DNA of 64,000 bases from Candidatus Kaiserbacteria bacterium (GTDB lineage Bacteria > Patescibacteriota > Minisyncoccia > Phycocordibacterales > Phycocordibacteraceae): positions 10,669 to 74,668 of the forward strand of contig JACQBN010000018.1 of the NCBI GenBank assembly GCA_016194455.1. The letters run 5' to 3'. Within the stretch, counting starts at the first letter, position 1. Every line of letters begins with the position of its first letter. The position numbers were made by a program, and so were the translations under genes. This document shows positions 2,425 through 59,863 of this stretch, piece by piece. The notes under the pieces were generated by a model. That model ran no database searches and had not been told where the DNA came from. It worked only from the letters and a program-made list of their open reading frames with translations.

Positions 2425-2444
2425 GGGTGTAGAATACTGGCTGT

Positions 2445-27299: not shown

Positions 27300-27325
27300 T
27301 TGACACGAAAAAAATTCGCAGTAGA

Positions 27326-27682: not shown

Positions 27683-27720
27683 CCGCGTCCGCCAGCTGGC
27701 GGACGCGGGCTTTCTTTTTT
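27683..27720 (+). terminator. strong rho-independent terminator between pilB unit and pilC
   Basis: Perfect 11-bp stem CCGCGTCCGCC-agct-GGCGGACGCGG followed by gctttctttttt. Confidence 0.7.
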
Positions 27721-27739
27721 GCATGCTAAAATTATATCG

Positions 27740-28951: not shown

Positions 28952-28952
28952 T

Positions 28953-29438: not shown

Positions 29439-29441
29439 AAA

Positions 29442-29993
29442 ATGCAAAACTTTGGTTTTACCTTGCTCGAGACCGTGATCACCATCGCTCTTTCCACCGT
29501 GATGATCCTCATTCTCGCGGGGCTCGCCTACAACTTCTCCTTCGTCTTTTCCTATCAGCAGAATGCGACGCAGGTGGCGGGCGGAGCGGGCCGCGTCGCG
29601 AGCGAGACGGATGCGCTCATCCGCGGCGCGAGCCAAGTCCTCTCTTCGCACACCATCGCGGGCACGACCTACACCTCCGGCGCGGGGGCGCTCGTGCTCG
29701 CGCTGCCCTCCATCGACAGCTCCGGCGCTGTGATCGCGGGCAAGAGTGATTACGCGGTTGTCTACGCGAGCAGCACGAGCGCGTATCGGCTCGTGGCGGC
29801 GGACGCCGCGAGCAGCCGCGTCTCCGGCACAAAACTGCTGACGAACAATCTTCTAGCGCTCGCTTTCGCCTTCGACAACACCGACTTCACCCAGGTGAAA
29901 GGCGTCGGAGTCGACATAAAGACCGAAACGAAGACTAAGCAGCAGACTCTCGATGAGCACCGCTACCAGGTTACCTATCTGCGCAACCACTAA
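29442..29993 (+). CDS. prepilin-type pseudopilin
   Basis: N-terminus MQNFG^FTLLETVITIAL. Confidence 0.7.
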   Translation: MQNFGFTLLETVITIALSTVMILILAGLAYNFSFVFSYQQNATQVAGGAGRVASETDALIRGASQVLSSHTIAGTTYTSGAGALVLALPSIDSSGAVIAGKSDYAVVYASSTSAYRLVAADAASSRVSGTKLLTNNLLALAFAFDNTDFTQVKGVGVDIKTETKTKQQTLDEHRYQVTYLRNH

Positions 29994-33692: not shown

Positions 33693-34112
33693 ATGCAATT
33701 CACCATCCATGCCGACGGAGGCGCGCGCGGCAATCCGGGGCCCGCGGGCGCCGGCGCAGTCATTCGCGACGAGCTTGGCACCATCATCGGCTCGGTTTCT
33801 AAATTTCTTGGGCATCAGACCAACAACTTTGCAGAATACGAAGCGGTAATCGCCGCGCTTGAAGAACTTTTTACTCTCGTGCCCGCAGGGAAACGCGCAG
33901 CGACGCAAGTGGTGGTGAAGATGGACAGCGAGCTTGTGGTGAAGCAGATGAATCGGGAATATAAAGTCAAACATCCGAACCTCAAGGCGCAGCACGCGCG
34001 GCTTATACAGCTGGCAGGCGCCTTCACCTCCGTCTCCTTCGTCCACGTCCCGCGCGAACAGAACAGCGACGCCGACCAGCTCGCGAACGACGCGATGGAT
34101 AGGGGAGCATGA
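33693..34112 (+). CDS. rnhA: ribonuclease HI
   Basis: MQFTIHADGGARGNPGPAG ... NNFAEYEA ... DADQLAN catalytic DEDD pattern. Start trimmed to MQFT. Confidence 0.8.
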   Translation: MQFTIHADGGARGNPGPAGAGAVIRDELGTIIGSVSKFLGHQTNNFAEYEAVIAALEELFTLVPAGKRAATQVVVKMDSELVVKQMNREYKVKHPNLKAQHARLIQLAGAFTSVSFVHVPREQNSDADQLANDAMDRGA

Positions 34113-35608
34113 GCGGGTTCGTCGCGGTGCTCGGCGGGTTCGCGAGCGGAGTGTTGCTCCGCTCACTTTTCGTACTGGGCTGGCCGGTCATTGTGTTTGT
34201 TTTGCTGTTGGCAGCGCTCTGCGGCGCTGCGGCGTTCCTCCAGCCGCGCCGAGCGAGTACGCTCGGCGCGGTATTTTTTATATTCCTTGCACTCGGGATA
34301 GTGCGCGCATCGCTTGCCGACACGCCGCTCCCCACGCCCTTCGCGGCGAGCGTCAAGGAACGCGTTTCCTATGAGGGCATCGTTGTCGCCGATCCGGACC
34401 TGCGCGACGCGAACCAGAGTGTTGAAGTCCGCGTGCGGCAGGGCGACGCTTCAACAATCATGTTGGCGATTGCTTCGCGCACCCCGATCGTGCGCGTGGG
34501 CGAGCGCGTGCGCGTCTCCGGCACGCTTGAGGCGCCCGAGGCGTTCGCGGATGATAACGGCCGCGTATTTCATTATGATAAATATCTGGAGCGCGAGGGA
34601 GTACGCTTTATACTCAACTTTTCTTTCATCCGCGTGGAGGCGCCCGCGCCCTGGTACTCGCTGCCGGCTGCGCTTGCACGGGTAAAGCACACATTCCTCA
34701 ACGGCATTGCGGCGACTCTGCCCGAGCCCGATGCGTCCTTGGCCGGCGGCGTTGTGATTGGCGGGAAGTCGGGGCTCGGGAGCGATTTGCAGAGGGCATT
34801 TGCACGCTCTGGCCTCGTGCAGATCATTGTGCTCTCCGGCTACAACGTGATGGTCGTCGCCGAGTGGGTGATGTACGGCGTTGGCCTGTTCGCTCTACCG
34901 CGCCGATGGTCGGCGGCTGCGGGGGTTCTCGCCCTGCTTCTCTTCGTCGGGGTCGCGGGTGCGTCCGCTACCACGCTTCGCGCCGGGCTTATGGCGCTCA
35001 TCGCGCTCTACGCTCGGGCGACCGGCCGCTCCTACGCGGCCGGTCGCGCGCTCCTCGCCGTCGTCCTCCTCATGCTGCTTTATAATCCGCTCCTGCTTGC
35101 GTTTGATCCTGGCTTCGGGCTGTCGGTGGCGGCGACTGCGGGTCTCATTTGGCTTGCCCCGCGCATCGAGCCTTTATTTTCATTCGTGAAAAATCTTTTC
35201 TGGAAAAACGCGATTGCGACGACGCTTGCCGCACAAGTTGCCGTGCTCCCGCTCCTTCTTTACGACACCGGCACTCTCTCCTTGGTAGCTATCCCCGCCA
35301 ACCTGCTTGCCATGCCGCTCGTGCCTGCGGCAATGGCGTTCTCCGCGCTCGCAGGCCTCGCGGGAATTCTTTTCAGCGCCATCGCGCCCTTGCTCGGCAT
35401 CGTTATTGCGTTCCCCGCGTATCTCGCCATGCGATTCCTCGTCCTCCTTGCAACCGGGAGCACGGCACTCCCGTTTGCCGCGTTCATCCTTCCCGCATTC
35501 CCTTTTGTGCTCGTGCTTGCCGCCTACGCCGCACTTATTTTCTTAGCTTCGTCAAAACGTTTCTCCACGACGCTCCAGTTGAGGTTCGCGAAGAATGCGT
35601 CTACGTAA
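34109..35608 (+). CDS. comEC: ComEC/Rec2 DNA-uptake channel protein (no C-terminal beta-lactamase domain)
   Basis: DUF4131-like N-terminus plus polytopic competence domain. ORF ends before any metallo-beta-lactamase domain. Confidence 0.8.
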   Translation: MSGFVAVLGGFASGVLLRSLFVLGWPVIVFVLLLAALCGAAAFLQPRRASTLGAVFFIFLALGIVRASLADTPLPTPFAASVKERVSYEGIVVADPDLRDANQSVEVRVRQGDASTIMLAIASRTPIVRVGERVRVSGTLEAPEAFADDNGRVFHYDKYLEREGVRFILNFSFIRVEAPAPWYSLPAALARVKHTFLNGIAATLPEPDASLAGGVVIGGKSGLGSDLQRAFARSGLVQIIVLSGYNVMVVAEWVMYGVGLFALPRRWSAAAGVLALLLFVGVAGASATTLRAGLMALIALYARATGRSYAAGRALLAVVLLMLLYNPLLLAFDPGFGLSVAATAGLIWLAPRIEPLFSFVKNLFWKNAIATTLAAQVAVLPLLLYDTGTLSLVAIPANLLAMPLVPAAMAFSALAGLAGILFSAIAPLLGIVIAFPAYLAMRFLVLLATGSTALPFAAFILPAFPFVLVLAAYAALIFLASSKRFSTTLQLRFAKNAST

Positions 35609-39127: not shown

Positions 39128-39553
39128 CTAGCCGGTGCGTTTGGGGGCGAAGCGGCCGCCGAGGACGATGGCGAGCGTGACGACGCTGTAGATGATGCCG
39201 AGGAGGCGCGCGGCGCCCTCGCGCGAGAGCTCGGTGCCCACCGGCATCGGGATCGGGAAGACGAAGACGAGGAGGGCGGCGGCAATCGGGACGAAGTAAT
39301 AGCTAAACTTAAGCCACCTCTTGAACTCTGTTTCGCTTGCGAAAAAGAGGACAGCCGCGACCAGCGCGAGCCACTCGCCAATGGAGAGAAGAGGCAGGCC
39401 AACATTCACACCAGTATCAACTTGGCAGATCCAAGAGACATTGTCCGCGCCACGACAAAGTCCATATGGTAAGGGGTTGGCGAAAAAAGTGCCGACAAAA
39501 TAAAAAACTGCGGCGATAAGAAGGAGTGAGAGTTTTAGATAGATATTCTTCAT
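39128..39553 (-). CDS. hypothetical polytopic membrane protein
   Basis: 4 hydrophobic segments. No motif. Confidence 0.45.
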   Translation of the reverse strand: MKNIYLKLSLLLIAAVFYFVGTFFANPLPYGLCRGADNVSWICQVDTGVNVGLPLLSIGEWLALVAAVLFFASETEFKRWLKFSYYFVPIAAALLVFVFPIPMPVGTELSREGAARLLGIIYSVVTLAIVLGGRFAPKRTG

Positions 39554-42450
39554 GGGCTGAGCAGACCCACTAGTTGTAGCATGAAGAGGGCCTGCGCTTG
39601 TGTGATCTGCTTGCCCGACTGTGCGTTAATCAAGCTCTGCAGATTGCTCAAGGCGCCCCGGAGCACTTCCTTTTTGCTGCCAAGATTCGCCTCCACTTTG
39701 TCGAGCGCCTTGCTGAGATCGGTTTTGACCCCCTGCGCTGCGCCTAGCGTATTGATATACGAGCGCAGGTAGGCAATCAGCTGGGTCGGCGAGAGTACGG
39801 GAGCTCCTGGGGTGTAGGTGAAGTCGCTTGAACCGTTGCCGTCTTCGTCTACCGAAACCGCACCCACGGTGCCGTTACTGACCGAGAACGTAGCGGTGGT
39901 GGAGGCGATAAGCGGAATATTGCGGAAGGAGACGGTCGTGCTCGCCGAGCCGTCGGCCTGTTCCGCGCCAACGTTCAAGGTCGCGTAGCCGCCGGCGTAG
40001 GCCTGCATCGAGATCGTGTAGCTCCCGCCGGCGGGCAGATAGAGATACTCCTCGTCGCCGAAGGTCTGCACCGAGCTGCCCGGTACGTCCTCAAGGAGAC
40101 CGGTAAAGTCGGTCCCGGGCATCGGTAGAATCCCCGTTCTGTTCCCGCTCGCGTCAGTTGCGACAATGTTCACGGGCGAGCGGGTACTGATTATGGTAAT
40201 TGGATTTAATCCGCCTGGCGGTCTAGTCGATGAAATAAATGACCCGAGAGAATTTTTGCCTTCAAGAATAGATTCGACGATGTTTTGAATTGGAGAGGCA
40301 GCGGTCAAGTTTTGATGAACAATATTTTTTCTAGTCGCGTGGAAAAACGCTGAAGTGTCAAAATAAGCTTTACCTGCAGTATCCCCAAGCGCGCTGGCGT
40401 CGATGACGGTGTCGTCGCCGTCCTGCGTGTTGACCGGGGCGTGCTCGAGCACTTGCCTCACGCCGCACGAGAAGACGCCGGAGACCGAATCGCAGGAATA
40501 TTTCGTGCCGGTGGTGTAGGCGAGGGTCTTGAGCGTCTTCTGCCCCCAACCGGCGATGGCGGTCACCGCGATGCCTGACGGCGGCGTCCAGGCGTCGAGC
40601 TGCGCGTGGGTCGCCTGGGCCTTTTGCAGCAGCGTGGGCGAGAGAGCGAGAGGCGTCGTGAGCGCGCCCGGATCGCCCACCGTTGCATCAAGATGAGCGG
40701 GGTCGCTTAAGAAGTTCGCGAGCGCGCTGTAGTTGGTGGTTGTTGCGCCGTAACTCTCCGCGTACTTCCCCGCGAGCGAGGTCGCGTCGAAGGTGGCGAC
40801 CGGGTCGGCAATGCGAGCGAAGTACGCGGGCGCCGGTAAGAGGCCGAAGGCGCCCGGCATCGTGCTCGCGACGGCGCGCGCAGCCGTTTGATTGATAATG
40901 AGACTCGGAATATCGGCGAAGTTGTCGGCGTGGAGGAGCGCGCCAATGCTCGAAGGCGTGCCGTATTGCGGCGTGCCGATCATGATGATGCGGTCGATAT
41001 ACTTGGGCGCGTCCGCCCCGAGCGTGATTGCAAGCGCCTTGGCGAGGAGGCCGCCGTTACTGTGCGCGACGATAGTCACCTTGCCGGTGGCCGAGTTGGA
41101 CGCCATCTGCTTCAAGACATCCGCGAGATAGACGCGCGTTATCGAGCCGTCGGGCTGTTCCGTCAGCGTGCCGTTCTGCACAATGTCGAAGACGTCGTAG
41201 CGCCAGTCGTAGGGGTACGCGCGCCACTCCTTGATCGTGCCGGTGGCGACAAGGCCGTCCATAAACTGCTCGAAGGTGCCGTACACCTCGAGCGTGTCGA
41301 AGAGGCCGGCAATGGTACTCGCGCTCCGGTTATGCGCCTGGATTGAGTCCACGATATCTTTTGTGTAAATCTGGGCCTTGCTCGAGCCGTCGGCGTTGAG
41401 CGCAAGCGGCGGGAGATCGGTGGAGAGCGTGGGCTCCCAGAGCTGGTGCTCATTGCCAAGCAAGGTATCACGCGTGTATAAACGGCTTCCTTCAATCCCA
41501 GGCAGGAAGAGGACGCTGGAAACCTTTGGCGCTCCACAGCCGCTCGCGAAGGAGTCGCAGGCGAGGAAGGGAAGGACCGACACCATCGTTGGTTCGTTGA
41601 AGCCGACATTCACAAGGCCGTTCGGGTTCAGCGCCGCCCAATACGGGCCCGACGCGTCGCCCCACCAGTTGTTCTCCATATGGACGGAGAAGGTGCCGAG
41701 ATAGTAATCGAGCGCCGCACCGCGCAGGCCGTCTATGCTGCTTTGGTGCATGAGCAGTGTTGTGGGGGAGGGGCTGCTGCTCGTCCACAAGCGGGCTATG
41801 TAGTTCTCGCCTTGGAAGAGATCGTTCTCGAGATCGAGGAGGCCTTGTGAGCCCATATAGACCTGATAGCCAGGAACGTTTTCAAAAACGCTGTCGGCTA
41901 TAAGCACCCGTGCGCCCGTGAGTACATAGACATTGCCGACATATCCGCCAGAGCTTTGTACTGAAAGGAGGGTGGAGTTTGCATCGCCGGCCACTCCCGC
42001 GTAGCGGAAGCGGATATGCTCGAGCGTGCTCGTGGCGTCCGTACCGGCAAACTGGATTGCGCCCCAGCGATTCTGCTCTGGATCCGTGGCAGTGCCGTCG
42101 CCGTTCGTGTCGCCGCCCACGCTGTCGTCGGCGATGGAGGTGAAGACGACGGTGCTTGAATCGGAGGTGCTCCCGGCATTGAGAGTGCCGTTTACTTCAA
42201 TGGCAGCCTCGCCGAAGGGGTTGTTAAAAAACTTGACGACCACGCCCGGATCAATGGTGAGCGTAGCGCCCGGACTAATCGTAAGCGGCTCCAACACCTC
42301 AATCGGACTCCCGGCAGTCGTCCACTCGGTGTCGGCACTGACGACGACCGGGGCGACGGTCGCCGCCTCCGCGCTCTGCGCGGAGGCGGCGACACCAACG
42401 CACAAAATGGAGCACAAAAGAAAAAGCGTGCGAGCGCGCATCGGGCACAT
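39550..42450 (-). CDS. giant secreted protein: N-terminal beta-helix-like domain + alpha/beta-hydrolase (lipase/esterase, GHSxG) domain
   Basis: Track ORF 39550..42738 trimmed to signal peptide M(CP)MRARTLFLLCSILCVGVAASAQSAEA. Gly/Thr/Asp-rich repeats typical of right-handed beta-helix. VLFLPGIEGSRLY plus nucleophile elbow GHSNGGLLAKA. Confidence 0.7.
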   Translation of the reverse strand: MCPMRARTLFLLCSILCVGVAASAQSAEAATVAPVVVSADTEWTTAGSPIEVLEPLTISPGATLTIDPGVVVKFFNNPFGEAAIEVNGTLNAGSTSDSSTVVFTSIADDSVGGDTNGDGTATDPEQNRWGAIQFAGTDATSTLEHIRFRYAGVAGDANSTLLSVQSSGGYVGNVYVLTGARVLIADSVFENVPGYQVYMGSQGLLDLENDLFQGENYIARLWTSSSPSPTTLLMHQSSIDGLRGAALDYYLGTFSVHMENNWWGDASGPYWAALNPNGLVNVGFNEPTMVSVLPFLACDSFASGCGAPKVSSVLFLPGIEGSRLYTRDTLLGNEHQLWEPTLSTDLPPLALNADGSSKAQIYTKDIVDSIQAHNRSASTIAGLFDTLEVYGTFEQFMDGLVATGTIKEWRAYPYDWRYDVFDIVQNGTLTEQPDGSITRVYLADVLKQMASNSATGKVTIVAHSNGGLLAKALAITLGADAPKYIDRIIMIGTPQYGTPSSIGALLHADNFADIPSLIINQTAARAVASTMPGAFGLLPAPAYFARIADPVATFDATSLAGKYAESYGATTTNYSALANFLSDPAHLDATVGDPGALTTPLALSPTLLQKAQATHAQLDAWTPPSGIAVTAIAGWGQKTLKTLAYTTGTKYSCDSVSGVFSCGVRQVLEHAPVNTQDGDDTVIDASALGDTAGKAYFDTSAFFHATRKNIVHQNLTAASPIQNIVESILEGKNSLGSFISSTRPPGGLNPITIISTRSPVNIVATDASGNRTGILPMPGTDFTGLLEDVPGSSVQTFGDEEYLYLPAGGSYTISMQAYAGGYATLNVGAEQADGSASTTVSFRNIPLIASTTATFSVSNGTVGAVSVDEDGNGSSDFTYTPGAPVLSPTQLIAYLRSYINTLGAAQGVKTDLSKALDKVEANLGSKKEVLRGALSNLQSLINAQSGKQITQAQALFMLQLVGLLSP

Positions 42451-42456
42451 GATACT

Positions 42457-42885
42457 ATGATGCTGATGGAATACCAGGTTCCGCAGTTCATCGAGGTCGA
42501 GGACAAGATCGTCGGCCCACTTACCCTGCGGCAGTTCATCTACCTCGCGGGCGCGGGCGGGCTCTGCGTCATTTTCTTCTTCCTCCTGCCCCTTATTTTC
42601 GCTCTTATCCTCTCGGTTCCAGTCGCTGCGCTCGGGGCTGCGCTTGCCTTCTATCGGGTGAATAGCAAACCATTCATCGAGGTGCTCGAGTCGGCCTTTG
42701 GCTACTACACCTCCTCGCATCTCTTCCTCTGGAAGCATCAGGAGCCGAAGGCCGGCGCCGCAGCGGCGCCGGCCCCAACCACCGCTCCCTTGCCCGCGCG
42801 CGGTACGCCGCGGCTCACGCGCGGCAAGCTCTCGGAGCTCTCCTGGTCGCTCGATGTCAAGAAACCAGAGTCGCTCAAGCCCTGA
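42457..42885 (+). CDS. PrgI-family (VirB3-like) T4SS membrane protein
   Basis: N-terminus MEYQVPQFIEVEDKIVGPLTLRQFIYLAG followed by TM helices is the PrgI family signature. Pro/Ala-rich C-terminus. Confidence 0.6.
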   Translation: MMLMEYQVPQFIEVEDKIVGPLTLRQFIYLAGAGGLCVIFFFLLPLIFALILSVPVAALGAALAFYRVNSKPFIEVLESAFGYYTSSHLFLWKHQEPKAGAAAAPAPTTAPLPARGTPRLTRGKLSELSWSLDVKKPESLKP

Positions 42886-42887
42886 CC

Positions 42888-43544
42888 ATGGCCACCAAAC
42901 CCGCTGGCGCGACGCAGAACTTTGTTCCGATCAAGGAGATCCGGAACGGCATTGTCGTGCTGAAAGACGCCGGCTATCGGGGGATTCTCATTTGTTCTTC
43001 TATCAACTTTGGCCTTAAATCCGCGGATGAGCAGCGCGCGATTACGCTTGGATTCCAGAACTTCCTCAACACGATAGACTTCTCGATCCAGATCGTCGTC
43101 AACTCGCGCCGCATGGATCTGCGGCCCTATCTCGCCCTCCTCGCCGAGAAGGCGCCCGAGCAGCGCACCGAGCTCATGCGCATCCAGCTGCGGGAGTACC
43201 AGGAGTTCATCCGCTCCTTCGCCGAGCAGTCCAACATCATGACGAAATCTTTCTATATCGTCGTACCGTACGCGCCGCGCGTCGAGCTCGGAAAGACCGC
43301 AGCGGGGCTCCTCGGCCGGCGCCAGAACGCATCGGGCGCCGCTGCGGTGGCCGAGAGCTCCTTCGAGGAAGATCGTGCGCAGCTCGAGCAGCGTCTCGCG
43401 CTCGTCTCTGGCGCGCTCTCGGGGACGGGGGTGCGCGCAATCCCGCTTGGGACCGAGGAGATCATCGAGCTCCTCTATCGCTCCTTCAATCCGGGTGAGC
43501 TCGAGAATCCGATCCGCCTTGAATCCTACTATGGCACTTCTTGA
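42888..43544 (+). CDS. VirB4/TraC/PrgJ-like T4SS ATPase, N-terminal domain fragment
   Basis: FVPIKEIRNGIVVLKDAGYRGILICSSINFGLKSADEQ matches VirB4 family N-terminus. Ends 14 nt into the next ORF in another frame. Confidence 0.6.
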   Translation: MATKPAGATQNFVPIKEIRNGIVVLKDAGYRGILICSSINFGLKSADEQRAITLGFQNFLNTIDFSIQIVVNSRRMDLRPYLALLAEKAPEQRTELMRIQLREYQEFIRSFAEQSNIMTKSFYIVVPYAPRVELGKTAAGLLGRRQNASGAAAVAESSFEEDRAQLEQRLALVSGALSGTGVRAIPLGTEEIIELLYRSFNPGELENPIRLESYYGTS

Positions 43545-45348
43545 TTTCATCAACCGCAGGAAGCAAGAGGAGCCGAAGGTCGTTCCGGTCTTGCCGAGAG
43601 ACATTTACAAACAAGGCGCGCTCGACCTCGTCGACACCATCGCGCCCTCCGCGCTTAAGATCGGTGCGCGCGAAATAGAGCTCGGCGAGAAGTTCGTCCG
43701 CTCTTTCTATACTATCTCGTATCCGCGCTTCCTCGCTGACGGCTGGTTCTCGCCCATTGTCAACTTGGACCAAGTGCTTGATATCGCGATCTTCATCCAT
43801 CCCGTCGAGACCGCCTCCGCGCTGCGCGACTTCCAAAAGAAGGTGGCGGAGGTGCAGAGCCAGATCAATGAACGAGAAGCGCGCGGGCTTGTGCGCGATC
43901 CTTTGCTCGATACGGCGTACCAGGATCTCGAGAGCCTGCGCGACAACTTGCAACAGGCGCAGGAGAAACTCTTTGAGGTTGGGCTCTACCTCTCGCTGTA
44001 TGGCGATTCTAAAGAGGCGATAGACAAAATAGAGGGTGACATCCGCGGCATCCTCGATGCGAAGCTCGTCTACACCAAGCCCGCGCTTTTCCAACAAGAA
44101 CAAGGATTCCGTTCCTGTCTCGCGCTCGGCACCGACGAGCTCCTCGTCAATTCAAAGCTGAACTCTTCGCCGCTCTCCTCGATCTTCCCTTTTGTCTCGT
44201 TTGACTTGACCTCCGACCGAGGAATTCTGTACGGGATAAACAGACACAACTCTTCGCTCATCCTCTTCGACCGCTTCTCCCTCGAGAACTATAATTCTGT
44301 CGTCTTCGCGAAGTCGGGCTCGGGGAAGTCCTACGCGACCAAGCTTGAGATCTTGCGCTCGCTGATGTTCGGCACGGATGTCATCGTGATTGACCCTGAG
44401 CGCGAGTACGAGCAGCTCGCGGAGGCGACCGGCGGCCGCTCCTTCCATATCTCGCTCTCAAGCGAGCACCACATCAATCCGTTTGATCTGCCCCCGGTCA
44501 AAGAAGACGAGGACCCGAAGGACATTCTCCGGAGCAACATCATCAATCTCGTCGGTCTCTTCCGCATCATGCTGGGCGGTCTCTCGCCGGAAGAAGACGC
44601 GATTATCGACCGCGCCATCAGCGAGACCTACGCGCTCAAGGACATCACCGGCGACGCCGACTTCACCGGCGCAGAGGTACCTTTGCTCGCCGACTTTGAA
44701 CAAGTGCTCTCGGGGATGGAGGGGAGTGAATCCTTGGTCCAGCGTCTTTCCAAATACACGCAGGGGACGTGGGCGGGCTTTATGAATCAGCCGACCAATA
44801 TTGATATCAACCAGCAGTTCGTCGTCTTCTCCGTGCGCGACATGGAGGATGAGTTGAAGCCGGTCGCGATGTATGTGGTCACGCACTACATCTGGAACGC
44901 CATACGCCATGAGCTCAAGAAGCGTCTCCTCGTGATCGACGAGGCGTGGTGGATGATGAAGAGCGAAGACACCGCTTCCTTCCTCTATTCCGTCGCGAAG
45001 CGCGGAAGAAAGTATTATCTCGGAGTCGCGACCATCACCCAGGACGTTGAAGACTTCCTTAAGAGCCCCTACGGCCGGCCGATCCTCACGAACTCCTCCA
45101 TCCAACTGCTCCTCAAACAGTCGCCGACGACCATTGATCTCCTGCAGCAGACCTTCAATCTCACGGAAGAAGAAAAATACCTGCTGCTTGAGGCAGGAGT
45201 CGGCGAGGGGCTCTTCTTCGCGGGCCTCAAGCACGTCGCGATAAAGATCGAGGCGAGCTACACCGAGGATCAAATCATCACCTCCGACCCGTCCCAGCTC
45301 TTGGCGATAAAGGCGGAGAAGGAGCGCTATGCCTCTCAACAAAAGTAG
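43531..45348 (+). CDS. VirB4/TraC/PrgJ-like T4SS ATPase, C-terminal ATPase domain (frame-shifted relative to N-terminal fragment)
   Basis: Walker A VFAKSGSGKSYATK, Walker B LLVIDEAWWMM, C-terminal ITSDPSQL. Start set at MALLDF overlapping the upstream fragment; the track ORF starts at 43375. Confidence 0.75.
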   Translation: MALLDFINRRKQEEPKVVPVLPRDIYKQGALDLVDTIAPSALKIGAREIELGEKFVRSFYTISYPRFLADGWFSPIVNLDQVLDIAIFIHPVETASALRDFQKKVAEVQSQINEREARGLVRDPLLDTAYQDLESLRDNLQQAQEKLFEVGLYLSLYGDSKEAIDKIEGDIRGILDAKLVYTKPALFQQEQGFRSCLALGTDELLVNSKLNSSPLSSIFPFVSFDLTSDRGILYGINRHNSSLILFDRFSLENYNSVVFAKSGSGKSYATKLEILRSLMFGTDVIVIDPEREYEQLAEATGGRSFHISLSSEHHINPFDLPPVKEDEDPKDILRSNIINLVGLFRIMLGGLSPEEDAIIDRAISETYALKDITGDADFTGAEVPLLADFEQVLSGMEGSESLVQRLSKYTQGTWAGFMNQPTNIDINQQFVVFSVRDMEDELKPVAMYVVTHYIWNAIRHELKKRLLVIDEAWWMMKSEDTASFLYSVAKRGRKYYLGVATITQDVEDFLKSPYGRPILTNSSIQLLLKQSPTTIDLLQQTFNLTEEEKYLLLEAGVGEGLFFAGLKHVAIKIEASYTEDQIITSDPSQLLAIKAEKERYASQQK

Positions 45349-45907
45349 CCCGCGCCCCAAGGTAATGACCTGGAAGAAGGCACTGCCCATTCTTGCTCTC
45401 GCGGGGATTTTCGATGCGATCCGCTTCGCATTTGAACAATTTTGGCTCTTCGGGCCCATTCTCGTCGGCACTGCCACAAACAGTTTCTTTGGTGGTGGGG
45501 CGATCGGAGGTGTGGCGGGAAGCATTGCTGGCAAAACATCTTTTCTCGCGGGCCCCGAGCTTGAGGTTTTCGGCATCGTGATGGCAGCCGTGGTCGGACT
45601 CGCGGGGTGGGGAACAATCGGCTTTTTACTTCTTGTATTCAATCAGCGCTTTTTTAAAGCGAACGCATCAAATACCCTCTGGTTCCTCTCTAGTCTGGTC
45701 GTGAGCGAGATACCGATCGTCGGGAGCGTCCCCGCACTTTTCGCTGCGACCTTCAAGGGCTATCATTCGCAAATAAAAAGAGAAAAAGCGGCGCTGAAGC
45801 GCTGGGAGAAAGAGCGAACCGAGATGCAAAAGAGAAATCGGGACGCGCGGCTCGCCGAGCAGTATGCAGCGGCAGAACAAAATGAGCTGGCAGAGGCGAT
45901 ATACTAG
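45329..45907 (+). CDS. polytopic membrane protein in T4SS-like operon (VirB6/TrbL-role candidate)
   Basis: ~4 TM helices with Gly-rich loop, charged coiled C-terminus. Likely real start MTWKK at ~45365. Confidence 0.45.
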   Translation: MPLNKSSPRPKVMTWKKALPILALAGIFDAIRFAFEQFWLFGPILVGTATNSFFGGGAIGGVAGSIAGKTSFLAGPELEVFGIVMAAVVGLAGWGTIGFLLLVFNQRFFKANASNTLWFLSSLVVSEIPIVGSVPALFAATFKGYHSQIKREKAALKRWEKERTEMQKRNRDARLAEQYAAAEQNELAEAIY

Positions 45908-45911
45908 AAGC

Positions 45912-46907
45912 ATGAGTCTTTGCGCGCAGCTAGCGTTCTTCGCGGCAATTACCGCGGCTCTGCTCCTGCCCGCAAGCGCGCTCGCGCAATCTCTTGTAGT
46001 CCCGTCGGGGCTTACTCTGACAGTCTCCCCGCAGTACCCGACGCCCTACGGGGAAGTCCTTATTACTCCGCTCTCGACGACTTTTGATCTCGTCAACGCC
46101 TCGTACACGCTCTCGGCCAACGGGAACGTCGTTTATCGCGGCAACGCGAAGCCCTTCGCGGTGGCCCTCGGCGCGGCAGGCAGCGTCACGAGCGTGAAGG
46201 CAATGGTCACGGGCAGCGGTGGCAGCGTGAGCCAGAGCATCTCAATCCGCCCGCAGGATGTTGCGCTCGTCGCCGAACCACTCTCGTCAGTCCCGCCGCT
46301 CTACCCGGGCAAGGCGCTCGTTCCGCTTGAGGGGAGCGTGCGGGTCGTCGCGGTTGCGAATTTGCGCTCGAAGGCCGGCAAGCAGGTTGATCCTTCGGCG
46401 CTCTCCTACGACTGGACGCTCGACGGCACCGAGCTCGCGGGCTCCTCCGGCATCGGCAAGAGCTCGATCACCGTCGCTTCGCCGCTCCAGTATCGCGCGG
46501 GCAGAGTCTCGGTCGTCGTGAAGAGCCAGGATGGTGCGCTCGCGAGCGGCGACTTGCTCTCGCTCACGCCCGTAGAGCCCTCGGTGCGTGTCTACGAGGA
46601 CGATCCTCTGCTCGGCGTGCGCTTCGAGCGGGCGCTTGCGGGCTCCTACGCGCTTGCAGGAGCAGAGACCACCCTCTATGCGGTCCCGTACTCCTTCCCG
46701 CTTGCGCTCGGCGCGCCCGTCCTCCACTGGTTCCTCAACGGCAGCGCAGCGCAGACCGGCGACTTCGTTACGCTGCGGCCCACGGGGAGCGGAGGAGGGA
46801 GCGCAAATGTCTCCCTGACCGCTACTGCGGGGGACTTCGCGCGCGCGAGCGCTGTGCTCTCGCTTACCTTCAACGCAAACGCGAGCGCTACTCTCTTCGG
46901 ACTATGA
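45912..46907 (+). CDS. secreted protein in T4SS-like operon
   Basis: Signal peptide MSLCAQLAFFAAITAALLLPASALA^QS. Beta-rich. Start placed after the upstream stop. Confidence 0.45.
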   Translation: MSLCAQLAFFAAITAALLLPASALAQSLVVPSGLTLTVSPQYPTPYGEVLITPLSTTFDLVNASYTLSANGNVVYRGNAKPFAVALGAAGSVTSVKAMVTGSGGSVSQSISIRPQDVALVAEPLSSVPPLYPGKALVPLEGSVRVVAVANLRSKAGKQVDPSALSYDWTLDGTELAGSSGIGKSSITVASPLQYRAGRVSVVVKSQDGALASGDLLSLTPVEPSVRVYEDDPLLGVRFERALAGSYALAGAETTLYAVPYSFPLALGAPVLHWFLNGSAAQTGDFVTLRPTGSGGGSANVSLTATAGDFARASAVLSLTFNANASATLFGL

Positions 46908-48004
46908 AAAAGATAATTTTCGCGGCCGGATTTATTCTAAGCTTCACGGCATTCGCTCCAGCGGCATTCGCCGAGGGCGATATTGGCCAGGCGGATTGGC
47001 CCTGCTTCGACGCCATCGACCCGACCCAGCCGACAACCTGCGATACTGCAAACGGGTATCACTTCGTTCCGCTTGCGCCCATCCCCGGCCTCACCGCAGA
47101 CCAGAACGGCACCCCATTTATTGGTACGCCGGATCTCCCGAGCTTCTTGAACAACCTGTATCAGTACCTGATCGGGTTTGCGGCTGCGCTCGCGGTGATT
47201 TATGTCATCTGGGGAGGACTAGAAATTTCCACCCAGGACAGCGTGAGCAAGCAGAGCGATGGCCGCAAGCGCATTGAGGGCGCACTCTTCGGCCTCGCGC
47301 TTGTGCTCGCTCCCTATCTCGTCTTCTACGTCATCAACCCCGCGATCGTGAATCTCTCGCTCAATCTCCCCGCGCTCCAGACCCAAGGCGGCACGTTTGG
47401 GACGGGTGTGAACTCCCCGACGCAGTCAACGACAGCGGCAAACGGAGTGACTACGACGGTAACAGGCACGTACCTCCAGACCGCGCACTTCGCCTCAAAC
47501 GACCAAACCAACAACAATAACGCCCGAGACGCCTGGGTAAGCAGCTGTAACTCCTCCGGCGGAGTCGGGTACGCCGCGCAAGACAGTGGGTGCGGATCGA
47601 ACGTTGTCCCTGCCGGAGGAAAAACGACCTGCGTCTCCACAAGCGACGCCATTGCTAAATGCGCAACGTTTTCAAAGTCCGCATATAACTTCGTCAACAT
47701 TGGTGCGGCCTGCAGTGGTGTTATCAGCTGTTTTGCGTCAATCGATTTACAGCCCTTAAACACTGACGCTTCTGCTGTCTCGGGCTTCGTGGGGGCGTGT
47801 TCCTCGGATGGAGGATACGCGTGTATAGCAGCGGGTACTGGTTTAAGCATACCCCACGGTTTGGGCCTCCGAGAGCTGAGCGCGTGCCCGGAGGCAATAA
47901 CGGGGCTAGCAGGAAACGCTAGTGGAAAATGTTACCAAGCCGGTCTCTTCTGCGCCCGGACTCAGGGGGCTAGTCAGTGCGCGGCCAACACTACGTTGCA
48001 TTAA
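46904..48004 (+). CDS. VirB2/TrbC-like pilin-type protein with Cys-rich C-terminal domain
   Basis: Signal peptide, then two hydrophobic helices (LYQYLIGFAAALAVIYVIWGGLEI ... GALFGLALVLAPYLVFYVINP), then ~170-aa domain with ~14 Cys. ATGA overlap upstream. Confidence 0.45.
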   Translation: MKKIIFAAGFILSFTAFAPAAFAEGDIGQADWPCFDAIDPTQPTTCDTANGYHFVPLAPIPGLTADQNGTPFIGTPDLPSFLNNLYQYLIGFAAALAVIYVIWGGLEISTQDSVSKQSDGRKRIEGALFGLALVLAPYLVFYVINPAIVNLSLNLPALQTQGGTFGTGVNSPTQSTTAANGVTTTVTGTYLQTAHFASNDQTNNNNARDAWVSSCNSSGGVGYAAQDSGCGSNVVPAGGKTTCVSTSDAIAKCATFSKSAYNFVNIGAACSGVISCFASIDLQPLNTDASAVSGFVGACSSDGGYACIAAGTGLSIPHGLGLRELSACPEAITGLAGNASGKCYQAGLFCARTQGASQCAANTTLH

Positions 48005-48007
48005 ATT

Positions 48008-49213
48008 ATGCGCCGGACTTTAATCATCATCGCGACAGTGGTAGTCCTCGCTGGGGTTGGGGCGTGGGTGTACTTCTCCTTCTTCGCGGGCTCTGCCGGA
48101 GTCGCGGTCGCTCCGGCGGGGAATGCTGGTTTGCCGATCGCGGGGCAGGGAACTCAAAACGGTTCTGCCCCTTCGGGCGCAACTGCTGGAGCGCCTTCGG
48201 CGCCCGCTGCGCCAGTGAAAGTCTCTCCGCGCCTGGTACAGATTGATAAAGGTCCGGTCGTCCCGGGCGAAGTCGCACGAGATATTAAAATTTCTTCCAC
48301 AACGAATGACGTTGTGGTTTCTTATGTCGAGCGCCAGAGCGGCAACGTCTTCTCCTACTTCGTGAACGCGGGCACGCTCACCCGGACCAGCAACCGCACG
48401 CTTCCGGGCATCGAGGAAGCCTCGTGGCTTCCCGATGCCTCGCTTGCCTTCGTACGCTACCTCTCGGGGACAAACTTCAGCATCACCAACACGTACGCGC
48501 TCCGAGCCGATGGCTCAAGCGGGTTCTTCCTGCCGCAGAATCTCGCCGGAGTCTCGGTCTCTTCAACAACGATTCTCGCGCTTGCCTCGGGCGGTAACGG
48601 CTCCGTAGTCTCTCTGGTAAAGAGCGACGGTACCCGCGCGACCCAGGTCTTCACGACGCCCCTCTCCTCGATCCGTATTTCGTTTGCGGGCAAGAACCAG
48701 TACCTCGTCGTCACCAAGCCCTCCGCGACACTGCCGGGTGATGCGTATCTTGTGGACAGCGCAGGACACTTCTCGCGCGTCGCGGGGCCGCTCTCGGGCC
48801 TCGTCGCGCTCGCGAGTCCTTCAGGCACATGGGCGCTCGTGAGCTCGGCTGCAAACGGCACCATGCGTCTTGAGCTGGTGAACGCTTTGACCGGCTCGGC
48901 GCTGCCGCTCCCGGTCGCGACCATCGCGGATAAGTGCGCTTGGGCTCTTGATGAATCCGCGGTCTACTGCGGCGTGCCAATCTCGCCGAGTGCGGCATAC
49001 TCCTACCCCGACGACTGGTATCAGGGCGCTGCGCATTTCTCTGATCGGATCTGGAAAATAGAAGTCACTGGGCGCTATGCCGAGCTCGTGCTTGATTTCA
49101 ATAAAGAAACGAAAGGGCTCTTGGACGCAGAGGCGCTCGCGCTTGACCCGCAGCGCTCCGCGCTCGCGTTTCTCAACAAAAACGACGGCTCGCTCTGGTC
49201 GTATCAGCTCTGA
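48008..49213 (+). CDS. N-terminally TM-anchored extracytoplasmic protein in T4SS-like operon
   Basis: MRRTLIIIATVVVLAGVGAWVYFSFF anchor, then Ser/Thr/Gly-rich beta region. Confidence 0.45.
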   Translation: MRRTLIIIATVVVLAGVGAWVYFSFFAGSAGVAVAPAGNAGLPIAGQGTQNGSAPSGATAGAPSAPAAPVKVSPRLVQIDKGPVVPGEVARDIKISSTTNDVVVSYVERQSGNVFSYFVNAGTLTRTSNRTLPGIEEASWLPDASLAFVRYLSGTNFSITNTYALRADGSSGFFLPQNLAGVSVSSTTILALASGGNGSVVSLVKSDGTRATQVFTTPLSSIRISFAGKNQYLVVTKPSATLPGDAYLVDSAGHFSRVAGPLSGLVALASPSGTWALVSSAANGTMRLELVNALTGSALPLPVATIADKCAWALDESAVYCGVPISPSAAYSYPDDWYQGAAHFSDRIWKIEVTGRYAELVLDFNKETKGLLDAEALALDPQRSALAFLNKNDGSLWSYQL

Positions 49214-56461: not shown

Positions 56462-57466
56462 TCACAGCAGACTTTCACCCCCGAGGTAGTTCCGGCCCCG
56501 CGGCGTGAGCATGCGCCCGCGCGGGGACCGCTCGATGAGGCCAAGCCGCAAGAGGTAGGGCTCGTACACATGTTCCATTGTGTCGGCCTCCTCGTGCAAG
56601 CTCGCCGCGAGCGCGCGCACCCCTGCGGGCCCGCCGCGGAAGCTCTTGTGCAATGCCTCAAGATAGCGCCGGTCGTCCTTGGTGAGGCCGAGCGCGTCGA
56701 TGCCGAAGAGCTCAAAAGCTCTCTCTAAAAGCCCGGTCGAAAGCGGAAGCTCGTGTACCTCGGAGAAGTCGCGTACCCGCTTGAGGAGCGCGTTCGCCAC
56801 TCTTGGAGTCGCGCGGCTCCGGGCCGCGACCCGCTCTATGACCTCCTCGGGCGTCGAGAGTCCGAGCAATCTCGCCGAGCGGCGGATGATGTCGCGCAGA
56901 TCTTCCTCGCTGTAGAAATCAAGCTGGTAGGTACCGCCCCCGAAGCGGGAGCGTAGGGGGCCGGAGAGCTCCGCCACCCGCGTCGTCGCGCCCACGAGTG
57001 TGAAGGGCGGGAGCGCGAGCTCCACCGTGCGCGCCGAAGGGCCCTTGCCGAGCACGATATCGAGATGTCCGGACTCAAGCGCCGGGTAAAGGAGTTCTTC
57101 GATTTTGCGCGAGAGGCGGTGGATCTCGTCAATAAAAAGAACGGTACCAGGCTCAAGATTGGTCAGAATCGCGGCAAGGTCGGCCGCGCGCTCGATCGCC
57201 ACTCCGGAGGTACTCTTCAGCTGTGCGCCGAGAGTCAGGGCGACCAGGTGTGCAAGCGTCGTCTTGCCGACCCCGGGCGGGCCGTAGAAGAGCAGGTGCT
57301 CGGGCATGCCCCCGCGTTTCTTGGCGGCATCGATCGCGATGCGGACGTTCGCTTTGACCTGCTTCTGGCCGACGTATTCCTCCCAGCGCGCGGGGCGGAG
57401 CGTCGCGTCGAGTGCCTCAAACGGCTCTTGGCGACGGGACCCTTGGGCCTTGCGAGGGGTTGACAT
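56462..57466 (-). CDS. ruvB: Holliday junction branch-migration helicase RuvB
   Basis: Walker A GPPGVGKTTLA, FIDEIHRL, C-terminal winged-helix domain. Confidence 0.95.
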   Translation of the reverse strand: MSTPRKAQGSRRQEPFEALDATLRPARWEEYVGQKQVKANVRIAIDAAKKRGGMPEHLLFYGPPGVGKTTLAHLVALTLGAQLKSTSGVAIERAADLAAILTNLEPGTVLFIDEIHRLSRKIEELLYPALESGHLDIVLGKGPSARTVELALPPFTLVGATTRVAELSGPLRSRFGGGTYQLDFYSEEDLRDIIRRSARLLGLSTPEEVIERVAARSRATPRVANALLKRVRDFSEVHELPLSTGLLERAFELFGIDALGLTKDDRRYLEALHKSFRGGPAGVRALAASLHEEADTMEHVYEPYLLRLGLIERSPRGRMLTPRGRNYLGGESLL

Positions 57467-57664: not shown

Positions 57665-58183
57665 TTAGTGTTTTAAAACAATCGCCGCCGCTTTCTTGTA
57701 TACCTCATCCGCATTTAGTTTTTCGGCGTCGATAACCACAGCGCGCGGCCTATTCGGGATTAGTCTCTGCGTACTATGCCAAAACTCCTCAACCCGTTTT
57801 GGAGTCAGCAAACCGCCCTCTCGGAATCCCCGTTCGTGGGCGCGTTGCGTGACCGTTTCTTTGGTTGCGTTGAGAATAAATTCGTAGACCGTTGCGCCGC
57901 ATTCCTCTCCAACCCTTTCCAATGCGTCGAGCTTGTCTCCCGTGTCGAGAATTATCTTATCGATAATGACATCATGCCCGGCCTCTAAATAAGTTCTCGT
58001 AGCTGCGAAACAAAATGCAAAGGAAAGCTCATAACTTTTCTTCCGATGTTCACGGTATCCGCTTATGAGTCGCCGCTGCGCGTCGATGTCGAGGAGCAGC
58101 GAAAGAGGCATCGCCTTGTATAAACGCTCGGCGAGCGTCGACTTGCCGATCCCCGACGGCCCGTTGATGATGACCAGTTTCAT
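57665..58183 (-). CDS. P-loop kinase (AAA_33/zeta-toxin-like nucleotide or small-molecule kinase fold)
   Basis: MKLVIINGPSGIGKSTLAERL Walker A, DID lid region. Substrate unknown. Confidence 0.5.
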   Translation of the reverse strand: MKLVIINGPSGIGKSTLAERLYKAMPLSLLLDIDAQRRLISGYREHRKKSYELSFAFCFAATRTYLEAGHDVIIDKIILDTGDKLDALERVGEECGATVYEFILNATKETVTQRAHERGFREGGLLTPKRVEEFWHSTQRLIPNRPRAVVIDAEKLNADEVYKKAAAIVLKH

Positions 58184-59863
58184 TTATACCCGCGGGAGAT
58201 CGACGGTTGCGGCGACTTCGGCAAGCGAGGTGATGCCCGCGAGCGCTTTGACGATTCCGTCTTGCGCCATCGTAAGGTAGCCCTGCTTCGCTGCCGCTTT
58301 CACGATTTCGCCCGAGGGAGGATTATCGCGGAGGAACTGCGCGAGCTCGTCGTCCATGAATATCGCTTCGTAAAGCCCGATACGCCCTTTGTAGCCAGTC
58401 TCCCCGCTTTCGGGGGAGTCGGGGCCGGGCTCCCAGACGGTTTCTCTTTTTTCGGGTATCAGTGTTTTATCGGCAAGTGAGGAGAACACTTTTTCAATCA
58501 TCTTTTTCTCCCCCGTGGTGAGCGGACGCTCTTTCCGTTTGTTCGGGTCGAGCTTGCGCACCAGCCGCTGCGCCATCGAGACGGTGATCGCGGAGCCGAA
58601 TGACTTCGGATCCGCGCCGAGATCAACGAGGCGGGGGAAGGTCCCCGCGGCGTCGTTGGTGTGGAGGGTGGAGAAGACGAAGTGCCCGGTCAAGGCCGCT
58701 TGGATCGCGATGTTGGCGGTGTCGCCGTCGCGGATCTCGCCCACCATAATCACGTCCGGGTCCTGCCGGACGATGGAGCGCAGCCCTTCGGCGAACGTAT
58801 ATTTTTTCCCTTCCACCTGCGTCTGCACAATACCCTCAAGGTGGTACTCCACCGGGTCTTCAATGGTGATCACTTTTATCTCGGGGGTATGGATCTCGCG
58901 GAGAAATGAGTAGAGCGTCGTTGTCTTGCCGCTCCCCGTCGGGCCGGTGGTGAGGAGCATCCCGTTTGCCCTCCTGATCTCGGCCTCGAGCCGCGCGAGG
59001 AGCTTCGCGGGGATGCCAAGCTCGCGGAATGAAATCTTCGTCGTCTCAGGGTCGAGGATCCGGAGCACGATCGACTCGCCGTAGTTGCCGGGGATGAAAG
59101 AGGCACGGATCTCCACCTGCATCTCTCCGCGGGTGACGCTGAAGCGCCCGTCCTGCGCGCGGTCTGCGATATTCAGCTTCACGCCCGCAAGGAGCTTGAT
59201 GCGCGAGTTGAGGAGACGGTAGGTCGCGGGGTCGAAGAAGTAAGCGTCGGTCAAGAGGCCGTCGATCCGGAGCCGCAGTTTGGTCCGCGCCTCCTCGGGT
59301 TCAAAATGGATGTCGGAGGCGCGAAGCCCTGCCGAGCTTGCAAAGAGCGCTTCTAGGATGCGCGAGATTCGGTCGAGTGATTTCTCCGCGGCCGCGGCGT
59401 CGAGCGCGCTCCGGAGCGCCGAGAGTTTGGTCGTCGCGCTCGCAAGCGCGGTGTAGGCCTCTTGCGGAATTTCAAAAACGCCGGCCCTCGATTCTGTTGC
59501 GAGCGAGAGGTCATGGTAGCGCCCGAGTGCCTTCTCCAAACTTTTCTTTGATACCAGAAATTGCTTCACGACAAAACCGCCCTGCTCCAGCTCTTTGAGG
59601 AGCGGCGCAAGCGCCGCGTTCCCCGGGTTATGCACCGCGAGCGAGAGATGCTTCGCGGTCCGGTCGAAGGGGACTGCCTCAGCCCTCTTCGCCTTCGCCT
59701 CATTCGTTGCCCGGAGCGCCTCGGCATCTATTTGCTTCAGCGAGAGGTCGGCATAGGGCATGCCATATTTCTCCGAGAGGATGCGCGCGACATCCTCCTC
59801 CTCACGCTCGCGCACGCCCGCGAGCGCCGCTTCCTCAGTTCTTGGGTCAAACGGGAGATCCAT
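58184..59863 (-). CDS. second GspE/PilB-family secretion ATPase (with N-terminal GspE_N-like domain)
   Basis: Walker A TGPTGSGKTTT, Asp/His boxes, MVGEIRD. Confidence 0.85.
   Translation of the reverse strand: MDLPFDPRTEEAALAGVREREEEDVARILSEKYGMPYADLSLKQIDAEALRATNEAKAKRAEAVPFDRTAKHLSLAVHNPGNAALAPLLKELEQGGFVVKQFLVSKKSLEKALGRYHDLSLATESRAGVFEIPQEAYTALASATTKLSALRSALDAAAAEKSLDRISRILEALFASSAGLRASDIHFEPEEARTKLRLRIDGLLTDAYFFDPATYRLLNSRIKLLAGVKLNIADRAQDGRFSVTRGEMQVEIRASFIPGNYGESIVLRILDPETTKISFRELGIPAKLLARLEAEIRRANGMLLTTGPTGSGKTTTLYSFLREIHTPEIKVITIEDPVEYHLEGIVQTQVEGKKYTFAEGLRSIVRQDPDVIMVGEIRDGDTANIAIQAALTGHFVFSTLHTNDAAGTFPRLVDLGADPKSFGSAITVSMAQRLVRKLDPNKRKERPLTTGEKKMIEKVFSSLADKTLIPEKRETVWEPGPDSPESGETGYKGRIGLYEAIFMDDELAQFLRDNPPSGEIVKAAAKQGYLTMAQDGIVKALAGITSLAEVAATVDLPRV

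Follow-up and report, generated by a model that had tools for sequence, protein, structure and literature searches.

The stretch of DNA analysed here, 64,000 nucleotides from the genome of a Candidatus Kaiserbacteria bacterium (contig JACQBN010000018.1; hereafter the window), carries at 46904..48004 on the forward strand a gene for a VirB2/TrbC-type pilin of a type IV secretion system (T4SS), the product of which is extended by a Cys-rich C-terminal domain. The gene is a single open reading frame (ORF) with an ATG start, encoding 366 amino acids (aa) plus a stop codon, and its product is 100% identical to NCBI HY091_01800 of Candidatus Kaiserbacteria bacterium, which is annotated as "hypothetical protein". 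The ATG overlaps the stop of the upstream ORF in the form ATGA (CTATGAAAA), and the downstream ORF starts 4 nt past the pilin stop. The encoded protein begins with a Sec-type signal peptide (residues 1-23, MKKIIFAAGFILSFTAFAPAAFA, followed by EGD; 46904..46972), recognized by hydropathy and probably cleaved between AFAPAAFA and EGD; aligned relatives show VFA followed by QGF at this site. It continues with a variable N-terminal extracytoplasmic insert (residues 24-52; 46973..47059), which is missing from most relatives and contains C34 and C46, probably forming a disulfide loop. The conserved VirB2-like pilin core (residues 53-155; 47060..47368), supported by a match to Pfam family PF18895, invariant alignment columns and helices modelled by AlphaFold2 (AF2), is followed by a Gly/Thr/Ser/Gln-rich linker (residues 156-173; 47369..47422), which is predicted to be disordered and varies in length and sequence among relatives. 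The remainder is a Cys-rich alpha/beta C-terminal domain with 12 Cys residues (residues 174-366; 47423..48001), hereafter the head, defined by AF2 modelling, conservation and Cys covariation. All these segments lie on the forward strand.

The pilin core contains, in order, an FVPLAPIPGLT motif, transmembrane (TM) helix 1 (residues ~86-107), a basic loop (108-123), TM helix 2 (~124-150) and an invariant NLSLN motif. Correspondingly, hydropathy peaks at residues 1-23, ~86-107 and ~124-150, the last two being separated by the basic loop KQSDGRKRIE, and the AF2 model obtained with a 34-sequence alignment as input shows a hairpin of helices 77-110 and 117-144, with disorder at residues 154-170 (predicted local distance difference test score, pLDDT, <50). 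PF18895 (T4SS_pilin) matched residues 81-137 of the window pilin with 25.8 bits (E 1.1e-5; gathering score 26.6), and it was matched by 34/34 full-length homologues (cores 64-72% identical; best E 6e-11), while the TrbC/VirB2 family PF04956 was matched by 22/34. Judged by these profile scores, membership in PF18895 appears secure at the family level and marginal for the single window sequence. A sequence-only reading of this DNA had proposed a VirB2/TrbC-type pilin with an extracellular Cys-rich region. Indeed, the family matches of the homologues, together with the signal peptide, the two helices and the basic loop, support the pilin identity, and the likely membrane topology (signal peptide, out-in helix, cytoplasmic basic loop, in-out helix), which would leave both the insert and the tail outside the cell, supports the extracellular placement. 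A PF18895/VirB2 pilin would be expected to be a small protein made up of the hairpin alone; the window pilin departs from this pattern by a 211-aa C-terminal extension with a confidently predicted domain of ~190 aa. A search with a pilin-core profile found no second pilin in the 64-kb window, nor was one found in the syntenic loci of relatives.

At the end of TM helix 2, just before the variable linker, lies a strikingly conserved motif of ~17 residues, INPxIxNLSLNLPxL. The NLS within its invariant NLSLN (N150-L151-S152; window 47351-47359) is an N-x-S sequon that is also present in aligned relatives. More sequons occur in the tail (NSS at 216, NAS at 338 and NTT at 362). The linker contains many Thr and Ser residues, and glycosylation of the exposed part is conceivable.

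The protein contains 14 Cys residues in total, C34 and C46 in the insert and 12 in the head (positions 215, 230, 243, 253, 270, 276, 299, 307, 328, 343, 350 and 359). The sequence-only reading had assigned about 14 Cys and ~170 aa to the region behind the pilin; the number of Cys holds for the whole protein, of which only the 12 at 215-359 are C-terminal while C34 and C46 precede the core, and the domain is genuine, but its folded part spans about 190 aa (174-366) and is preceded by the ~20-aa linker. The motifs it had quoted (CNSSGGVGY, CGSN and CVSTSDAIAKC) are all found in the translation. Residues 151-366 are composed of 14.8% A, 13.0% G, 11.6% S, 10.6% T and 5.6% Cys. Against a Cys background of 0.71% in the 65 longest non-overlapping ORFs of the window, 12 Cys in 211 aa is about eight times the expectation (binomial P about 5e-8). 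In the 34-sequence alignment, C215, C253, C299, C328, C343 and C350 are invariant and C359 nearly so, and the conserved non-Cys positions of the head include F295, G188 and P284. Another Cys-rich ORF in the window, at 2252-2698 on the minus strand (148 aa, 14 Cys, 9.5%, Arg/Cys-rich), overlaps longer ORFs at 1684-2496 (minus strand) and 2445-2822 (plus strand) which look like real genes, and it was rejected as an off-frame artefact rather than a second Cys-rich protein.

The number and the evolution of the Cys residues point to disulfides. An even Cys count after the core was observed in 117/120 homologues retrieved with the whole protein (P about 2e-31 under random parity), and an even Cys count was also observed in 77/78 complete pilin ORFs of an independent set comprising one genome per GTDB species. 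Across 130 aligned domains, Cys residues are gained and lost in pairs, with r = 0.83 for C307/C359, 0.70 for C343/C350 and 0.50 for C230/C243. The columns of T184 and F196 hold a Cys pair (r = 0.92) in about 83% of the family which has been lost in the window protein, and C270/C276 is an additional, lineage-specific pair that two relatives (P0002 and P0003) lack. Because Cys counts are even nearly throughout, Cys residues come and go in pairs and the predicted topology places them outside, there is strong indirect evidence for extracytoplasmic disulfides, as had been suggested from the sequence; the head would hold six of them and the N-terminal insert one. The presumed pairs of the head are 230-243, 307-359, 343-350 and 270-276, and probably 215-253 and 299-328.

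AF2 predicted the head with confidence, both as the domain alone (pLDDT 83, predicted template modelling score 0.77) and in the full-length model, where most of it exceeds pLDDT 90. The predicted fold is alpha/beta: two beta-beta-alpha-beta units that resemble each other precede a beta-hairpin region rich in Cys. Aligned with each other by hhalign, the two halves gave a probability of 29%, with ...W...C..GG facing ...F...C..DGG, which hints at a possible internal duplication. The Cys-rich region had been described as "disulfide-knotted", which is doubtful for a predicted alpha/beta domain of ~190 aa as opposed to a small knottin. Further searches related the head to no known Cys-rich family and to no structure in PDB or BFVD. 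Foldseek gave no match with E below 0.1 for the domain-only model (best E 1.4 against PDB and 0.27 against BFVD) or the full-length model (best E 0.18), and profile searches of PDB sequences with the head returned 0 matches at E<=10. In Pfam at E<=1, the window pilin matched the pilin family and a spurious FtsK_4TM only, NCBIfam gave no match, and no Pfam family covers the tail in any of the 34 homologues. The weak top matches of Foldseek (ribosomal protein S6, PII proteins, YbjN, type III secretion system chaperones and phage tail terminators) were not used, as they reflect merely a generic alpha/beta sandwich.

A profile of the tail alone (alignment A2, 26 sequences) was searched exhaustively against 1.84 billion representative proteins, which yielded only 106 matches at E<=1e-3. 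In every non-fragment match with a confirmed domain, the pilin core lies directly N-terminal of the domain, and the 5 matches with the domain only are short fragments of 105-208 aa. Because all non-fragment matches carry the core in this position, the head seems to occur only as an appendage of pilins. The family comprises about 100 clusters at 50% identity and lies outside Pfam, and it would merit a family definition.

No other part of the locus evolves nearly as fast as the tail. When the window is compared with five syntenic relatives (L001 and L003-L006), identity is 87-90% for VirB4, 82-85% for DnaA, 74-78% for YidC and 74-77% for TrsD; it decreases through the pilin core (64-72%) and the products of three further operon genes, orf401 (59-68%), orf347 (51-58%) and orf192 (42-47%), to 25-29% for the pilin tail. 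The tail alignment holds no stretch conserved enough for a search for related loci, which itself illustrates the variability of the tail, and the full-length alignment served for this search. In the orthologous position, the tail of one relative (P0051) comprises 111 aa with 4 Cys, and another (P0089) has a different tail of ~195 aa that was undetected by the head profile and is a remote relative (hhalign probability 90%). Among 78 species representatives, the head type of the window was found in 29, and tails ranged from 7 to 265 aa with 0-16 Cys. Moreover, P0170 contains two tandem copies of the head (636 aa, 30 Cys), P0125, P0128 and P0198 contain a partial duplication of the N-terminal sub-domain, and P0091 joins part of the window head domain to a short 'DPNGRTD'-type module. 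These tandem heads, duplicated sub-domains and mixed modules indicate, at the level of sequence, domain shuffling within pilin tails. The architecture thus consists of the conserved core with its invariant NLSLN, followed by a flexible linker and a Cys-rich head that can be exchanged, and in the Paceibacteria/Kaiserbacteria pilin clade different Cys-rich modules alternate at the same position. The fusion had been noted as an architecture that was not recognized; no description of it was found in the papers searched, but it is not a one-off, being the norm in this large clade.

The pilin gene is the sixth of seven forward-strand genes (prgI-trsD-virB4-orf192-orf347-pilin-orf401) that overlap or abut as an operon. 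The operon begins with prgI (VirB3-like; 42457..42885; PF12666, E 1.8e-12), which is syntenic in relatives. It is followed by a TrsD/TraC-like gene at 42888..43544, the product of which has no Pfam match of its own and is assigned by synteny, its orthologues in the five relatives matching PF26593 (TraC-like) and being 74-77% identical to it. The VirB4-like ATPase gene (43531..45348, 605 aa) matches NCBIfam NF045971 conju_CD1110 with 372.6 bits (cut-off 325) and PF19044. Mechanical ORF calling had placed its start at GTG 43375 with a 170-nt overlap with trsD; the start is likely ATG 43531 (MALLDFINRRK...) instead, since the resulting 605-aa product fits the lengths of the orthologues (588-608 aa). 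A 288-aa ORF at 42738-43604 on the minus strand is antisense to prgI, trsD and virB4 and was discarded as probably spurious. The next two genes encode a conserved 192-aa membrane protein (45329..45907) and a conserved 347-aa secreted or anchored protein (45864..46907) with faint cadherin-like/BiPBP_C beta-sandwich matches, the stop of which overlaps the pilin start. The last gene, at 48008..49213, encodes a conserved protein of 401 aa that carries a membrane anchor at its N-terminus. These 192-, 347- and 401-aa proteins match no Pfam or NCBIfam family and are syntenic in all relatives examined; they may be unrecognized VirB6/VirB8-like or envelope-spanning parts of the T4SS machine.

Downstream of the operon lie yidC (minus strand), dnaA, dnaN and a class A penicillin-binding protein gene, and an identical gene order beside yidC/dnaA/dnaN was found in all five relatives. 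The T4SS of the window is of the monoderm type, chromosomal and proximal to the replication origin. According to Quinonero-Coronel et al. 2025 (PMC12102498), Patescibacteria possess a T4SS with a monoderm MPF-FATA-like VirB4, TrsD, PrgI and VirB2-like pilins, often beside dnaA and usually with no relaxase, and the window operon is this system. In Southlakia epibionticum, the one species tested, epibiotic growth requires the T4SS and its pilins (PMC10633639; PMC12857230). Between an M50 protease gene and prgI, the window contains at 39128-42738 (minus strand) a 141-aa ORF and a gene whose 1062-aa product includes an alpha/beta-hydrolase (lipase) region resembling LCAT/PGAP1 (PF02450, E 7.5e-10). 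The same interval in the five syntenic relatives is empty or holds a small DUF3467 gene or DUF3467 with G6PD, which suggests a lineage-specific insertion next to the T4SS operon of the window. In addition, type IV pilus (T4P)/competence genes are located at 25554-29993 (plus strand), 58184-59863 (minus strand) and 34109-35608 (plus strand), encoding a PilB-like ATPase (T2SSE and MshEN), PilC (T2SSF), a second T2SSE ATPase and ComEC, and small ORFs near them may be type IV pilins. These separate genes mean that the cell has T4P as well as the T4SS pilin.

We propose with moderate confidence that the sole VirB2-like pilin of the T4SS displays a hypervariable head, most likely for host recognition or adhesion and partner specificity. 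The signal peptide would be removed after Sec export, the two hydrophobic helices would span the membrane, leaving the basic loop on the cytoplasmic side and both termini outside, and the C-terminus would lead through the flexible linker of ~20 residues to the alpha/beta domain, probably held by six disulfides. Should the VirB4 machine polymerize the core into a pilus, the heads of all subunits would be exposed along the outside of the filament; should the pilin stay at the membrane instead, the head would be on the cell surface. In either position the head would most likely recognize or adhere to the surface of a host cell and set the partner specificity of this presumed epibiont. We favour a host-recognition head because the head has a conserved scaffold and a hypervariable surface and is extracellular and modular, and because the machine is needed for the epibiotic lifestyle; a conserved core bearing a fast-evolving head, for which other species have other Cys-rich modules, makes the head most likely the part in contact with the host. 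The region had been suggested to be an extracellular tip or adhesin module. An extracellular fused domain is well founded and its adhesive function is plausible, but placement at a tip is unsupported: since neither the window nor the syntenic loci of relatives contain a second pilin gene, any pilus would carry the head on every subunit.

The geometry of such a pilus is consistent with this proposal. Pilins of the VirB2/TrbC superfamily polymerize into tubes that usually contain bound phospholipid. Structures of the F-pilus and T-pilus show that the lumen of conjugative pili is lined by the inter-helix loop, with the termini pointing outward, which would place the head on the outside of the filament. 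Solved conjugative pili consist of hairpins in five-start helices with outer diameters of 74-87 Å (PMC9905601). As a rough estimate for a globule of ~190 aa, the head has a cross-section of about 1040 Å^2, and a five-start pilus of 74-87 Å offers about 870-1400 Å^2 per subunit at 20-30 Å above its surface. According to this model, full decoration with heads would be tight but feasible with a linker of ~20 residues.

Several points weigh against the proposal. At the surface of the pilus itself, only about 560-820 Å^2 is available per subunit, so that full decoration would be crowded. The PF18895 score of the window pilin lies 0.8 bits under the Pfam gathering threshold. The presumed disulfide pairings come from covariation alone, and a CxxC screen and a Pfam scan of the Cys-containing ORFs found no disulfide oxidoreductase in the 64-kb window. 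Canonical VirB2, TrbC and TraA pilins are small and often C-terminally trimmed or cyclized, and the head could likewise be lost at maturation. To our knowledge, no experiment shows pilus formation by any Patescibacteria VirB2-like protein.

An unlikely but serious alternative is that the protein forms no pilus and acts as a membrane-anchored surface receptor or adhesin, its hairpin staying in the cytoplasmic membrane in or beside the T4SS channel and its head contacting the host. Linker and head would in this case project through the thin envelope. The bulk of the head, which makes dense helical packing tight, favours this alternative. Moreover, the VirB4 is of the Gram-positive CD1110/MPF-FATA type, and such systems are normally without pili (PMC12102498; PMC12857230). 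No such pilus is known to have been imaged in Patescibacteria, and so far the only solved filaments of the candidate phyla radiation (CPR) belong to a different, Ig-like system (10.64898/2026.03.03.709456). However, the core, at 64-72% identity, keeps every sequence hallmark of polymerizing VirB2-type pilins including the basic loop, and some relatives have near-bare pilins with tails of 7-58 aa, as expected of a filament subunit. Pilin genes are, in addition, essential in the Saccharibacteria T4SS (PMC12857230; PMC10633639).

The conservation of INPxIxNLSLNLPxL right before the variable linker would also fit a cleavage site, near NLSLN-LPxL, at which the Cys-rich region is removed before assembly as a C-terminal propeptide serving as an assembly chaperone or an anti-polymerization cap. 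Canonical conjugative pilins such as RP4 TrbC and TraA are indeed processed or cyclized at the C-terminus. By this analogy a discarded region is imaginable, but we consider it improbable for the window pilin. The fastest diversification of the locus, combined with six invariant Cys and a confident fold, would be unexpected for a discarded propeptide, as would be the tandem duplication in P0170 and the mixing of modules in P0091, and a TraF-type maturation peptidase was not seen in the operon.

The sharp boundary between a conserved N-terminal and a replaceable C-terminal part recalls the logic of CdiA-CT or Rhs proteins, and CPR genomes are rich in diversity-generating retroelements (DGRs). 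A tail that is delivered as a polymorphic-toxin-like effector or diversified by a DGR is nevertheless very improbable. The downstream orf401 is 59-68% identical whatever the tail type, which means that there is no co-varying immunity gene, and a domain with six disulfides would be atypical of a toxin acting in the cytoplasm. No template/variable repeat pair or direct repeat involving 46904-48004 and no tandem repeats were found in the 64-kb window, and no reverse transcriptase was found among the ORFs scanned in it. Direct repeats of 40 nt or more form a single family in the window, with four 40-nt copies (8626-8665, 57252-57291, 58131-58170 and 58914-58953), located in a Mg-chelatase-like AAA gene (7806-9386), the T2SSE ATPase gene at 58184-59863 and two unannotated minus-strand ORFs (56462-57466 and 57665-58183). 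We take these repeats to be sequence coding for a conserved P-loop-ATPase motif rather than mobile or DGR repeats.

That the gene is an annotation artefact, the ORF representing two genes or a pilin joined by a frameshift to a downstream Cys-rich protein, is suggested only by a length unusual for a VirB2-type pilin and is refuted by the comparative data: the frame is continuous and contains no internal Met, hence no internal start after the core; no second gene is present; 141 of the collected proteins show the same uninterrupted architecture, the domain-only matches all being short fragments; P0002 aligns with the window pilin over 100% of its length at 47% identity; and the fusion is seen in 29 independent species genomes. 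Accordingly, the single-gene fusion proposed by the sequence-only reading stands, and relatives retain the Cys-rich region.

The pilin family and its locus were already known. A description of the appended Cys-rich heads was not found in the accessible text of the open-access papers and preprints searched, so that an earlier description elsewhere is possible. Judged from sequence comparisons, VirB2-type pilins bearing a hypervariable and probably disulfide-rich head of unrecognized fold are general to a Paceibacteria/Kaiserbacteria clade and not peculiar to the window genome. A large share of bacterial diversity belongs to the Patescibacteria, most of which are thought to be attached to hosts, yet the basis of their host specificity is largely obscure. 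The head, being fast-evolving, modular, probably disulfide-bonded and without a known structural relative, is a concrete candidate for a host-recognition element. It also shows that VirB2-type pilins can tolerate large C-terminal passenger domains, which is relevant to pilus-display engineering and to the assembly of T4SS pili in monoderms. As a tentative extension, the VirB2-type pilins of this clade might have convergently taken on the design of T4P, in which the polymerizing stem is conserved and the disulfide-bonded head, here of a fold not seen before, can be exchanged, with a pilus sheathed in a hypervariable receptor-binding coat as a swappable determinant of host range. If true, this coat would decide which host cell a bacterium of this largely uncultured phylum attaches to and feeds on.

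Among known systems, the closest are the VirB2-like pilins of Patescibacteria (PF18895; Quinonero-Coronel et al. 2025, PMC12102498; Wang et al. 2023, PMC10633639), which belong to the same hidden Markov model family and to the same kind of monoderm-type T4SS with PrgI, TrsD and VirB4, located near dnaA in a cluster without relaxase or coupling protein. The accessible text of these two papers covers the presence, arrays and sequence variability of the pilins and does not mention a globular Cys-rich C-terminal domain. In contrast to the arrays described there, the window has one pilin gene, with variability concentrated in the appended head. With the canonical pilins VirB2, TrbC and TraA (PF04956), the window pilin shares the signal peptide, the arrangement of helix, basic loop and helix, and the linkage to virB3 and virB4. 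Mature canonical conjugative pilins have roughly 70-120 aa and no extra domain and are often cyclized or trimmed, whereas the window pilin adds a linker of ~20 aa and a disulfide-rich domain of ~190 aa. Moreover, it belongs to a Gram-positive-type machine, which normally has no pilin.

T4SS surface parts diversified for host-specific adhesion are also represented by the variant pilins TrwL and TrwJ of the Bartonella Trw system and by VirB5 tip adhesins, an analogy raised in PMC12102498. The diversity in Bartonella resides in tandem copies of small pilins and in VirB5-like proteins, whereas the window has a single pilin with a replaceable head, and no VirB5 homologue was detected. The Pam pili of CPR bacteria (bioRxiv 10.64898/2026.03.03.709456) are likewise built of CPR-specific extracellular filament proteins, for which paired Cys have been proposed to serve filament stability and host contact. 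They occur in Saccharimonadia and Microgenomatia, and their pilins have Ig-like folds assembled by donor-strand exchange with chaperone-usher-like factors; a relation was rejected, since this fold and mode of assembly are unrelated to the helical-hairpin core or the alpha/beta head.

In terms of design, the window pilin is akin to the type IV pilins of T4P and type II secretion systems, although the two families are unrelated. The window pilin has two membrane helices rather than one and would be assembled by VirB4 rather than PilB. Correspondingly, instead of the class III signal of T4P, which is cleaved by a prepilin peptidase between G and F/M-xxxE and precedes a single N-terminal helix, it has an ordinary AxA Sec signal and two further helices. 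Nevertheless, the logic shared with type IV pilins would be that of a conserved hydrophobic polymerization module which carries a variable, disulfide-stabilized globular head on a filament.

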